A stretch of DNA of 38,297 nucleotides from Enterobacteria phage HK620. This document shows, piece by piece, positions 50 to 9,803 of this stretch. The translations under genes and the position numbers were made by a program. The stretch is taken from sequence record NC_002730.1, one strand, 5' to 3'. How positions within the stretch are numbered: the stretch's first letter is position 1; each line of letters begins with the position of its first letter. The notes under the pieces are model-generated. The model was not told the origin of the DNA, did no database searches, and was given only the letters and a program-made list of their open reading frames with translations.

Positions 50-1243
50 TCACTCTACCTTTTCATCAAGCCAGTCCGCCCACCACTGCATCATTTCTCT
101 GCGCTTATCGAGATACTGAGCATGGTTGTAAATCCCACGCACAGATCCGCCGTTGGCATGTGCCAGTTGCACTTCAATAGCGTCAGCAGGCCATTCGTGC
201 TCGTTCATAATTGTGCTGAATTCATGCCTGAATCCGTGACCGCTTTCCAGACCCTCATAGCCGATTTGTTTGATCACAAGTAATACCGCGTTCTCGCAGA
301 TTGGCTTTTTCTTATCGTTGCGCCCGGCAAAAACAAACTCTGATACTGGTTTGGTGATTGAGCTTAGCGTAGTGAGAAGTTCAACTACCTGGTCTGACAT
401 AGGAACCACATGAATTTTGCGTCCCTTCATCACACTGGCGTCGATGGTGATAATCCTGTTTTCAAAATCGACGTTCTTCCATTGCATGGAACGAAGCTCT
501 TTCGTTCTTAGGGCGGTGTAGCGTAAAATTTTAGTAGCAATGAGCGATACGATACTTCCTGAAAATGTTGCAAGTGCTTTGTTGAATGCCGGGATCTGGT
601 CTGCTGGAAGAAACGGGAAGTTCTTCTTGCGGTATCCTTTCATGGCGTCTGCAAGGTCAGGTGCCGGGTTATATTTAGCCCTTCCAGTGACAATAGCGTA
701 ACGGAAAACCTCTCCGCATCTTCTGCGTGCTTTGTTGGCTCGCTCCATTGCACCGCGATCTTCAAATCTGCGGATTACTTCCAGCAGTTGCATCGGCTCA
801 ATATCCTGAATTTCAAGGCCGCCGATGATAGGTAAAATGTCGTCATCAAACATTTTTGCAAGTTCAGTCGCATACCCTACTGACCATACTTGCTTCTTGT
901 GCTCGTACCATTCCTTGTAAATCGCACTAAAGGAATTGTTGTTAGACGGAGCCTTTTTCGCCTTTACCGGATCGATGCCAACCGAGATGTCTTTCCTCGC
1001 GGCCCATGCTTTATCTCTTGCCTCCTGCAAAGTCATTAGCGGATATTTTCCTACGGTCAGGATTTTCTCCTTACCGTCAATCTTGTAGCGAAGCTGCCAT
1101 ACCTTTTTCCCTGATACAGGGACATAAAGGTACAGGCCATTACTATCGAGTAGGCGGTATGGTTTTTCTTTCGGCTTAGCTGCTTCAATCTGCTTAACGG
1201 TGAGCATGGGTAAAAATCCGGTGGGTAAAATTATTTTATCCAC
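50..1243 (-). CDS. int: tyrosine site-specific integrase (P4-type, N-terminal arm-binding domain plus C-terminal catalytic domain)
   Basis: 397-aa ORF; C-terminal region has recombinase-like R, HxxR (HGFRHEF) and Y (GIYNHAQY) motifs; GTG start; next to att-like sequences. Confidence 0.9.
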   Translation of the reverse strand: MDKIILPTGFLPMLTVKQIEAAKPKEKPYRLLDSNGLYLYVPVSGKKVWQLRYKIDGKEKILTVGKYPLMTLQEARDKAWAARKDISVGIDPVKAKKAPSNNNSFSAIYKEWYEHKKQVWSVGYATELAKMFDDDILPIIGGLEIQDIEPMQLLEVIRRFEDRGAMERANKARRRCGEVFRYAIVTGRAKYNPAPDLADAMKGYRKKNFPFLPADQIPAFNKALATFSGSIVSLIATKILRYTALRTKELRSMQWKNVDFENRIITIDASVMKGRKIHVVPMSDQVVELLTTLSSITKPVSEFVFAGRNDKKKPICENAVLLVIKQIGYEGLESGHGFRHEFSTIMNEHEWPADAIEVQLAHANGGSVRGIYNHAQYLDKRREMMQWWADWLDEKVE

Positions 1244-1252
1244 TTTTTACCC
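1208..1252. repeat. three copies of 8-mer GGGTAAAA/TTTTACCC (1208-1215, 1223-1230, inverted 1245-1252) overlapping the int 5' end; candidate integrase arm-type or accessory-factor sites
   Basis: Repeats read directly from sequence; same 8-mer recurs at 1443-1462. Confidence 0.4.
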
Positions 1253-1368
1253 GTCATGGAGTGCGGCTGTCAACGATCTGACGCGAACCATTACGAACTG
1301 CGAATCTACGGAAGGCTTGATATTCAGGGGATTTTACGGACTGGTACGGATTGGAGCGAACTGATAAA

Positions 1369-1383
1369 TGGTGTCCCCTGCAG
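1369..1383 (-). other. putative attP core: 15 nt matching the 3' end of tRNA-Arg (argW-type), CTGCAGGGGACACCA on the minus strand
   Basis: Lies between int and the excisionase gene, flanked by arm-type repeats; match to the tRNA 3' end is from memory. Confidence 0.45.
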
Positions 1384-1442
1384 ACATCTACTTGAAGCAG
1401 CAGGGGATTGATTGGAATGGTGTTTTTTAGATGTGAGAAATA

Positions 1443-1462
1443 TTTTACCCGCTATTTTACCC
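1443..1462. repeat. two TTTTACCC repeats (1443-1450, 1455-1462) at the excisionase gene 3' end
   Basis: Same 8-mer as the repeats at the int start, opposite side of the putative core. Confidence 0.4.
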
Positions 1463-1657
1463 ATTGGCGCGGCTTAAGAGCTTATTTTTGAATTCACAAT
1501 GGTCACGATATAACCATCTTGCTCGACCGTGGATAACTTTGGCTTTTGGCAGGTCGCCGGACTTAATCCGGTCATAGATGAAGGTTTTACCGAAGCCAGT
1601 ATCGGCCATGATGAATTTCAAATCAACCAGTGAATCAGGCTGTAGTTCGTGTTGCAT
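1457..1657 (-). CDS. xis: excisionase / recombination directionality factor, TorI/AlpA-like winged-helix protein
   Basis: 66-aa ORF (MQHELQPDSLVDLKFIMADTGFGKTFIYDRIKSGDLPKAKVIHGRARWLY...) with the AlpA/TorI pattern; adjacent to int and att. Confidence 0.8.
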   Translation of the reverse strand: MQHELQPDSLVDLKFIMADTGFGKTFIYDRIKSGDLPKAKVIHGRARWLYRDHCEFKNKLLSRANG

Positions 1658-1676
1658 GAGTGCTATCTCCGAATAG

Positions 1677-1692
1677 GGAATCGAACCTGCAA
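1677..1692 (-). other. tRNA T-arm-like fragment (minus strand TTGCAGGTTCGATTCC), matches the argW-type T-stem/loop then diverges
   Basis: GGTTCGATTCC T-loop signature read from sequence; not a complete tRNA (no acceptor stem or CCA follows). Confidence 0.4.
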
Positions 1693-1701
1693 ATCAGGCA
1701 A

Positions 1702-1726
1702 TAAAAAACCGCCATCAGGCGGCTTG
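1702..1726 (-). terminator. rho-independent terminator at the distal end of the leftward early operon
   Basis: Minus strand GC-rich hairpin (GCCGCC-TGAT-GGCGGT) followed by a T-run. Confidence 0.5.
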
Positions 1727-1788
1727 GTGTTCTTTCAGTTCTTCAATTCGAATATTGGTTACATTGTTTTCATATATGAATAAATAAA

Positions 1789-9524: not shown

Positions 9525-9803
9525 ATGCAACTTACAAGTACTCGCAAGAAAGCGAATGCAATTACAAGCAACATCCTAAATCGAATTGCTGTACGTGGTC
9601 AGCGAAAGGTTGCTGATGCATTAGGGATCAATGAATCGCAAATTTCGCGATGGAAAGACAGCTTTATCCCAAAGATGGCCATGCTTCTGGCTGTGCTGGA
9701 GTGGGGTGTTGAAGACGAGGAGTTGGCGGAACTGGCTAAGAAAGTAGCCAGAATGCTGACAAAAGAAAAAGCCCCGAAGAACGGCGAATTCTTCGAGGCC
9801 TAA
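9525..9803 (+). CDS. cII: CII transcriptional activator
   Basis: 92 aa; ...[28 protein letters not shown]... parallels lambda CII; ribosome-binding site AAGGAAA. Confidence 0.85.

Follow-up and report, generated by a model that had tools for sequence, protein, structure and literature searches.

Enterobacteria phage HK620 (NC_002730.1; the 38,297 nucleotides (nt) analysed here are referred to as the window) carries an integration and excision module of the HK620/Sf6 type, built on the IntS/TorI recombination module of KplE1 and inserting at the tRNA-Arg gene argW. In the leader of its excisionase gene, xis, lies an exact copy of part of the argW T-arm (1677-1692, minus strand), which is the subject of this report. 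We propose that the conserved heart of this copy, CAGGTTCGATT(C/T)C, is a cis-regulatory DNA operator by which the module's own recombination proteins limit excisionase expression; the probability of this reading is, in our estimate, about 40%. In broader terms, the stretch is more likely a control element of prophage excision, so far undescribed, than leftover debris.

The module is assigned on the basis of its DNA identity to phages HK633, Sf6 and CUS-3, the domain composition of its integrase (Int) and the 100% identity of its excisionase to TorI. An earlier note, made from the letters of this DNA only, had already proposed an attachment site (attP), int and xis module of an argW-integrating phage, and the int gene, the arm sites, the TorI-identical xis and the prophage junctions all agree with it.

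A conserved T-arm copy upstream of xis

The reference for comparison was the argW gene as read from the attL junction of locus L004, GTCCTCTTAGTTAAATGGATATAACGAGCCCCTCCTAAGGGCTAATTGCAGGTTCGATTCCTGCAGGGGACACCA. The piece in the xis leader reads TTGCAGGTTCGATTCC and corresponds to argW nt 46-61; its heart, CAGGTTCGATTCC, occupies positions 1677-1689, with the pentamer GTTCG at 1682-1686. A second piece of the gene, CTGCAGGGGACACCA, is found at 1369-1383 on the same strand, 293 bp away, and corresponds exactly to nt 61-75, the 3' end of argW, so that the two adjoin in argW coordinates and share one base (C61). All other argW matches in the window are shorter. The longest matches in 300 shuffles measured 9-14 nt, and a length of 15 was never reached, which rules out chance as the source of either piece. 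Both tRNA identities given in the earlier note, with the T-arm piece ending where the 3' piece starts, were borne out when the pieces were aligned to host argW and to the attL and attR of prophages, whose junctions break at the 3' piece and not elsewhere. A real or degenerate tRNA gene at this place was considered and rejected: ARAGORN reports 0 genes, Rfam gives no tRNA hit, and T-stem pairing is not conserved beyond 2 bp.

Unlike the 3' piece, which is the attP core (see below), the T-arm copy is not part of the functional att site, because 1677-1692 is left out of a 135-bp attR, running from the 3' end of torI, that suffices for excision in vitro (PMC3509656). Its inclusion in the attP region by the earlier note is thereby not supported. 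Several relatives that lack the T-arm motif still keep the core and the arms.

The distribution of the motif was assessed in xis homologues taken from one genome per species (24 loci) and from IMG/VR, clustered at 95% xis DNA identity into 31 clusters; in 24 of these, Xis is at least 74% identical to TorI. The heart CAGGTTCGATTCC occurs with at most two mismatches in 16 of the 31 clusters (7 of them exact), and a form shorter by 1 nt, CAGTTCGATTTCC, in two more. All 18 belong to the 24 closer clusters, where about 0.02 such matches would be expected by chance, and none of the more distant clusters has the motif. The named hosts of the motif-bearing modules include Escherichia, Enterobacter, Citrobacter, Serratia, Pantoea and Edwardsiella. 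Two short contigs with the metagenome-assembled genome (MAG) labels Actinomycetes (L016) and Parachlamydiaceae (L033) also carry the motif together with an enterobacterial-type xis and an argW-type core; they are probably mis-binned enterobacterial prophage DNA.

The consensus of the heart lies about 30 nt before the xis ATG. GTTCG lies 28-29 nt ahead of the ATG in the majority of lineages, 26 nt ahead in the L117 group and 35 nt ahead in Serratia. When 23 leaders, all motif-bearing and hence informative on the contrast with the flanks and not on the presence of the motif, were aligned with MAFFT, the mean column identity was 63%, while GTTCG, TT and C did not vary and A hardly did. Pairwise identity, on the other hand, is 37% over the 26 nt upstream of the motif and 59% at xis third codon positions. 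The bases that lengthen the tRNA match differ between lineages: the TTG extension is restricted to the E. coli lineage, where others have TCCAGG, CATAGG, TGACAGG or CGCCGG, and Serratia and Pantoea extend the match by TG on the 3' side instead. In some lineages the motif is present in tandem (L117/L119, with a 16-nt period; L121; L015). The constancy of the 13-nt heart across genera, the divergence of its flanks and its tandem duplication indicate that the heart has been kept by selection and would not be a scar.

The same 13-mer can be described in a different way, namely as the 13 bp directly to the left of the inferred overlap TGCAGGG in the bacterial site (attB), ending exactly at the boundary. 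The element is thus a copy both of the T-arm and of the left half of attB.

Candidate functions of the element

The element lies in the xis leader between a terminator and the ribosome-binding site. The main candidate for its reader is TorI, which would then act by autoregulation, possibly helped by IntS. What favours TorI is that GTTCG, the defined core of its recognition site, forms the invariant centre of the motif; the cores of the TorI sites in KplE1 attL, established by mutagenesis, are GTTCG, GATCG and GTCCG (PMC2951348). The attL cores are mostly preceded by CAG, and the GTTCG of the motif is preceded by CAG(G), in two lineages by exactly CAGTTCG. A weak second TorI-like pentamer, ATTCG (1670-1674), adjoins the xis Shine-Dalgarno sequence GGAGAT (1665-1670; both on the minus strand), about 12 bp downstream of the first. 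Six lineages have GTTCG, GTCCG or GACCG at this place, and most others a pentamer at most one base off; GTTCG or GTCCG is found in the Enterobacter, P. stewartii, Edwardsiella, L163 and L164 lineages. In comparison with the attL TorI sites, the motif differs in its 3' flank and spacing; its GTTCG, preceded by CAG(G), is invariant, and some lineages have a second pentamer and tandem duplicates that resemble RDF site arrays.

Recombination directionality factors (RDFs) that double as transcriptional repressors through tandem direct repeats include P2 Cox and 186 Apl. TorI itself represses PintS through its five attL sites (PMC2951348). As in these cases, a one-orientation array of GTTCG-type pentamers stands here beside a gene of the recombination module, and RDF supply would be the controlled step. 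The arrangement is unlike theirs in having one strong and one weak site in E. coli, a spacing of about 12 bp as against 10 bp, and an empty promoter scan. It is also unlike the TorI sites in that the conserved block is longer and identical to the tRNA T-arm.

In the proposed operator model, the element would set the threshold for excision if, as published work on the module proposes, excisionase supply is the main control point. Further damping might occur at the level of translation if the 3' half of the element, AUUCC, pairs in the mRNA with the Shine-Dalgarno GGAG: AUU(C/U)CC can pair with GGAGAU in 85% of the alignment cells, compared to 29-51% when the partner is slid. Such an element fits a known gap, since the promoter of torI has been called uncharacterised and RDF supply has been proposed as the main control of excision (PMC2951348). 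The model would make this 13-nt element, located in the control region of the excisionase and identical to part of the tRNA target, a concrete and easily mutated candidate for the missing control point. The sequences, the junctions, the conservation and the position outside the minimal att are observed; every binding and regulatory step of the operator model is what we infer.

Several observations weigh against the operator. The motif is absent from six related lineages (Dryocola, Tatumella, Arsenophonus, Klebsiella phage Chronis/L165, L116 and L170) and from all of the more distant xis homologues, and is therefore dispensable, though normally retained. A sigma-70 promoter scan of either strand returned no passing promoter, and thus no -10/-35 pair on which an operator could act. 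Conservation runs past GTTCG into ATT(C/T)C, whereas the attL TorI sites have C or T after TCG. TorI binds cooperatively at a phasing of about 10 bp, and the second pentamer is 12 bp off and weak in E. coli. Finally, the pairing with the Shine-Dalgarno sequence shows no covariation beyond the conserved columns (72.5% paired in shuffles versus 74.1% observed).

Two of the lineages without the motif can be described further. In phage Chronis, xis overlaps the upstream gene. In Dryocola sp. (L019) the motif has been cleanly deleted about 30 nt upstream of xis, from CCTG to GGAG, with ATTGCCTG joined straight to GAGGAAAGC-ATG; the terminator and the Shine-Dalgarno sequence remain, making this a natural deletion mutant.

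The element might instead be read by the integrase. As a mimic of the attB left half-site, the core-type half-site B, it would be bound by IntS, perhaps through bridging from the P-arm sites at a distance of 215 bp, and would block transcription into xis or modulate assembly of the intasome. That the conserved block is precisely the 13 bp left of the inferred overlap, and stops there, speaks for such a mimic. Its sole variable position (C/T) coincides with the Y of GRTKYC, the half-site pattern obtained from C, C' and B, and the rare variant TTAGAT is shared by C sites (L138, L164, L165, L170) and the motif (L073, L123, L154). The sequence GAGAT, 7 bp on, is loosely like GACAC. However, the would-be right half, GAGATA, matches only 4/6 of a degenerate pattern and coincides with the Shine-Dalgarno sequence, and B is the poorest match to the half-site pattern. 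To our knowledge, no tyrosine-recombinase system uses an isolated half-site as an operator. Mutation of the true core, moreover, left IntS binding to attL and repression unchanged, so that core-type contacts are weak by themselves (PMC2951348). We consider this explanation unlikely.

A related and likewise rather improbable proposal is that the T-arm copy serves as a regulatory decoy: the core-binding domain of IntS, TorI or both would read the mimic of the attB left half and make the output of excisionase depend on what state the recombination machinery is in. If true, this would be a case of recombination-site mimicry used as a gene switch, and should similar modules at other tRNAs have a T-arm copy of their own in front of xis, it would amount to a general design rule. 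The two types of reader make different predictions. With attB mimicry the motif should track the tRNA target, whereas as a TorI site CAGGTTCG should stay constant whatever the target. In this regard, the tRNA-Arg of the Edwardsiella type (L188) differs in its acceptor stem and has the same T-arm, and covariation of the motif with the host T-arm is thus uninformative.

Control could also be exerted in the RNA, with the leader of the xis mRNA forming an anti-Shine-Dalgarno element, a structured element or a T-loop mimic for a tRNA-binding factor that governs translation. The nearly fixed distance of 28-29 nt between motif and ATG is in line with this, as is the pairing of AUU(C/U)CC with GGAGAU described above, in which the C-to-U variant closes one mismatch. 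Serratia, where the spacing is different, has an extended complement, UUCCUG/CAGGAG. The leader and terminator together fold better than shuffles (z = -2.6), though mostly by virtue of the terminator. On the other hand, covariation does not exceed what column composition gives, the anti-Shine-Dalgarno pairing covers only UUCC and not the invariant CAGGUUCGA, and the Rfam search of the region found no family above threshold. A hairpin mimicking the T-arm, for instance as a substrate of TruB or TrmA, was rejected, since its stem is conserved only for two G-C pairs and is paired in 51% of the cells, no better than slid controls. On balance an RNA-level element is a doubtful explanation.

Other RNA structures were tried and discarded. 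Long-range pairing across the xis mRNA between GCAG of the T-arm copy and CUGC of the 3' piece is not conserved, the left side being ACAGG or CCAGG and the right side AUGC in other lineages. A small hairpin, (A/G)CCUG...CAGGU, after the terminator is seen in the E. coli, Citrobacter-type, L135 and L015 leaders, but is paired in 60% of the cells and is absent from lineages that still have CAGG. On the plus strand, 1607-1734 gives a match to Rfam STnc130 of 25 bits against a gathering score of 55 (E about 0.1-0.2), which is probably driven mostly by the terminator. This sub-threshold match runs antisense to the motif and to the start of xis and stops at the hairpin of the terminator; an RNA complementary to the ribosome-binding site of xis may be encoded there.

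The earlier note had suggested that xis sits inside a split tRNA 3' half, perhaps a trace of an earlier recombination event; on this reading the T-arm copy would be a scar without function. The observation behind this idea stands, since the two pieces lie on one strand and abut in tRNA coordinates (46-61 and 61-75). The relatives from other genera, however, put the pieces in a different relation. Directly to the left of their core they read (A/T)TTCGATGT(A/C)|TGCAGGG, which is a decayed T-loop in register with the core; it has decayed from TTCGATTCC to TTCGATGTA or GTAGATGTC, the E. coli lineage having drifted further, to GTAGATGTC. Because the core side already has its own T-loop remnant, the T-arm copy is a second T-loop copy and not the missing half of the 3' piece. 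The two copies flank xis and the P arm as direct repeats, of which the left keeps the 5' context of the tRNA and the right, with its TTCGAT remnant, the 3' context. This is the pattern that a site-specific insertion with core duplication could leave. An old insertion of this kind, with duplication of the T-loop core, is a possible origin of the T-arm copy, and the variation by lineage of the extra tRNA-matching bases (5' TTG, 3' TG) is in keeping with it. As to persistence, a scar would be expected to decay as the core-proximal copy did, while the heart has stayed constant across genera despite turnover of the adjacent spacer and upstream bases, and has been duplicated in some lineages. A passive trace is thus not supported, and although the insertion may account for the origin of the element, it does not account for its persistence; a functionless scar is very improbable. 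If the element is indeed functional, it would caution that tRNA-like fragments near att sites are not always mere scars.

A CII-dependent pI promoter for the integrase, as annotated for HK620 and Sf6, would have the TTGC of the T-arm copy as second half of the CII box. It has in its favour that the Sf6 record annotates the equivalent 28 bp, inside 'bsq2', as 'pI; possible integrase expression promoter; homology to HK620' and that in lambda this terminator is likewise followed directly by a CII box, TTGC-N6-TTGC, but it is highly unlikely given that the boxes here have the form TTGC-N5-TTGC (1689-1701), that the second TTGC is not conserved in other genera (TTCC, ATAG, GACA or CGCC) whereas AGGTTCGATTCC is, that no -10/-35 pair passes the promoter scan, and that a promoter here would also express xis. 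A canonical CII box at this position was accordingly rejected. The only lambda-like CII box in the early region (TTGC-N6-TTGC with an AT-rich spacer) is TTGCTTGTAATTGC, at 9558-9571 on the minus strand, and is likely a pRE-type CII site.

The attP core and its binding sites

The 3' piece of argW is the previously published attP core and the breakpoint of the prophage junctions, and nothing in the core itself is new. It is identified as the core because the prophage junctions break within 1362-1383 and the published cores agree. Matches to attL sequences end at 1383 and those to attR begin at 1362-1367; in the attR of MP1/Kapi1 and the attL of L004, read directly, a common 17-bp block was found, CTGCAGGGGACACCATT. 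This block occupies 1367-1383 on the minus strand and consists of the argW 3' end with 2 additional nt. The Sf6 record annotates an 'attP core' at the equivalent position, the published core of KplE1 is CTGCAGGGGACACCAT, and in Kapi1 the att is 17 bp long and integration at that site is abolished by deletion of attB. In the K-12 annotation the attR copy of the core appears as the pseudogene pawZ. The crossover core is therefore where the earlier note had put it.

Strand exchange would take place within this block, over a 7-bp overlap for which we infer the sequence TGCAGGG (1376-1382, minus strand), because the flanking half-sites form an inverted repeat and change together with the acceptor stem of the tRNA. 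The overlap is followed by the core-type half-site C, GATGTC (1383-1388), an inverted repeat of GACACC across the overlap; the attP core as a whole is the imperfect inverted repeat GATGTC-TGCAGGG-GACACC (1376-1388 with 1369-1375). Comparison of 55 distinct core versions gave the pattern GRYGTN-TGCAGGG-NACRYC. Covariation of the half-sites is partial, with GGCGTA/AACGCC in the Edwardsiella type and GGTGTC/GACACC in L170. Where the acceptor stem of the tRNA is AACGCC or GACGCC, the half-site on the phage side is often altered to match, to GGCGTA, GACGTA or GACGTC (L023, L153, L029, L170).

On either side of the core are arm-type sites of the integrase, GGGTAAAA. The window contains six copies, where about 0.84 would be expected, and five of the six lie in 1208-1462; six copies were reached in no shuffle. 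The reading of these repeats as Int arm-type sites in the earlier note is in agreement with this enrichment. The P' arm (1208-1252, both strands) has sites at 1208-1215 (plus), 1223-1230 (plus) and 1245-1252 (minus) and overlaps the intS promoter, as in KplE1, where the P' arm-type sites have a TAAA core and overlap with PintS (PMC2951348). The P arm (1443-1462, minus strand) contains two direct sites, 1443-1450 and 1455-1462, and overlaps the xis stop codon; the two sites after the stop are kept in all relatives. Clusters of the site on both arms, beside a heterobivalent integrase and a TorI-identical xis, are what characterizes an attP module.

Five TorI sites, I5 to I1, were placed in the window (1274-1361, minus strand) by sequence identity to those of KplE1 attL. 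Their cores are GATCG (1274-1278), GTTCG (1284-1288), GTTCG (1294-1298), GTCCG (1337-1341) and GTTCG (1357-1361). In a hand count on L004 (1960-2010) and the window (1274-1361), the distances between attL pentamers were about 31 bp from the T-loop of argW to I1, and then 20, 43, 10 and 10. All of these are near multiples of the helical turn, and for this reason the argW T-loop itself could be an unrecognised sixth TorI site.

Genes, terminator and known systems

The first 2400 bases of the window are 96-97% identical in DNA to phages HK633, HZ41, Sf6, IME10 and CUS-3 and to the attL ends of argW prophages. The module is widespread: the 557-bp region under study has matches in 3029 of 5426 complete E. 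coli genomes, where its genes are annotated intS and torI. The int gene (50-1207, minus strand) codes for an IntS-type (P4-family) tyrosine integrase of 385 aa, composed of the Pfam domains Arm-DNA-bind_3, Phage_int_M and Phage_integrase and thus heterobivalent; its DNA is 96-97% identical to the int genes of Sf6, HK633 and CUS-3 and to the RefSeq 'prophage integrase IntS'. The xis gene (1457-1657, minus strand) codes for an RDF of 66 aa, identical to TorI, HkaC and Sf6 gp18. The protein shows 100% identity to E. coli TorI loci, one of them K-12-like, and carries the RefSeq name torI; TorI, HkaC and P18 have been reported as 100% identical to one another (PMC3509656). An open reading frame (ORF) of 46 aa (1324-1464, minus strand), hkaB of HK620 and gene 17 of Sf6, covers the attP core together with both P-arm sites, would be cut in two by integration and is probably no real gene.

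HK620 shares with KplE1 (CPS-53) and Sf6 the integrase, an identical RDF, the core of 16-17 bp and the arm-type and TorI sites, and in all of them attP lies between xis and int, placing these genes at opposite ends of the prophage. The published att maps reach only to the 3' end of torI; the T-arm copy, which precedes the gene, falls outside them. The module and its core are thus already known, and the stretch that contains the T-arm copy has so far been annotated only as a putative promoter or as boundary sequence. A full-text literature search for CAGGTTCGATTCC, the coverage of which excludes Clark 2001, Casjens 2004, Panis 2007 (JBC) and Menouni 2013 (PNAS), returned a single paper, an unrelated one on yeast. 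No description was found in the searchable literature of such an operator-like element, which would mimic an attB half-site from within the leader of an RDF gene, and it appears to be new. One published supplement of K-12 transcription start site (TSS) data contains no entries near the site in the torI leader.

Short strings identical to a tRNA are left at prophage ends by integration, as in the case of pawZ at KplE1 attR, and the 3' piece of argW is exactly such a fragment. Unlike these, the T-arm copy comprises the 5' strand of the T-arm and the loop, a part that integration does not displace. It is located within the phage, beyond xis as seen from the core, and is under selection.

A group of Proteus-type xis homologues (L030, L143-L147) has neither a TGCAGGG-type core after xis nor the T-arm motif before it. 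In L030 the 3' end of a convergent int directly follows xis, in place of the arm sites and core, and the architecture of the module in this group appears to differ.

In all of the xis leaders the GGAG of the Shine-Dalgarno sequence is kept. Just beyond the T-arm copy, as stated in the earlier note, is an intrinsic terminator for leftward transcription, a hairpin with a T-run at 1700-1725 (minus strand). Its sequence is identical in lambda, HK629 and P22, and is annotated as t'I in the last; homology to P22-like and Stx phages begins at 1699, and the terminator marks a mosaic boundary with the early-left genes. The t'I/pI region of lambda has the identical terminator, likewise placed immediately before xis, and a stretch containing TTGC comes after it. 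There, the CII box is canonical and pI starts inside xis, whereas in HK620 the spacing is off by one; the T-arm copy is absent from both lambda and P22. Other prophages have alternative terminator stems with compensatory changes. Among the E. coli prophages (L037, L061, L011), two different stems, GCCGCCTGATGGCGG and GCCGCATCAATGCGG, precede the same motif, and the version in K-12 KplE1 has decayed. The arrangement of a terminator followed by the motif persists even where the sequence of the stem has been replaced.

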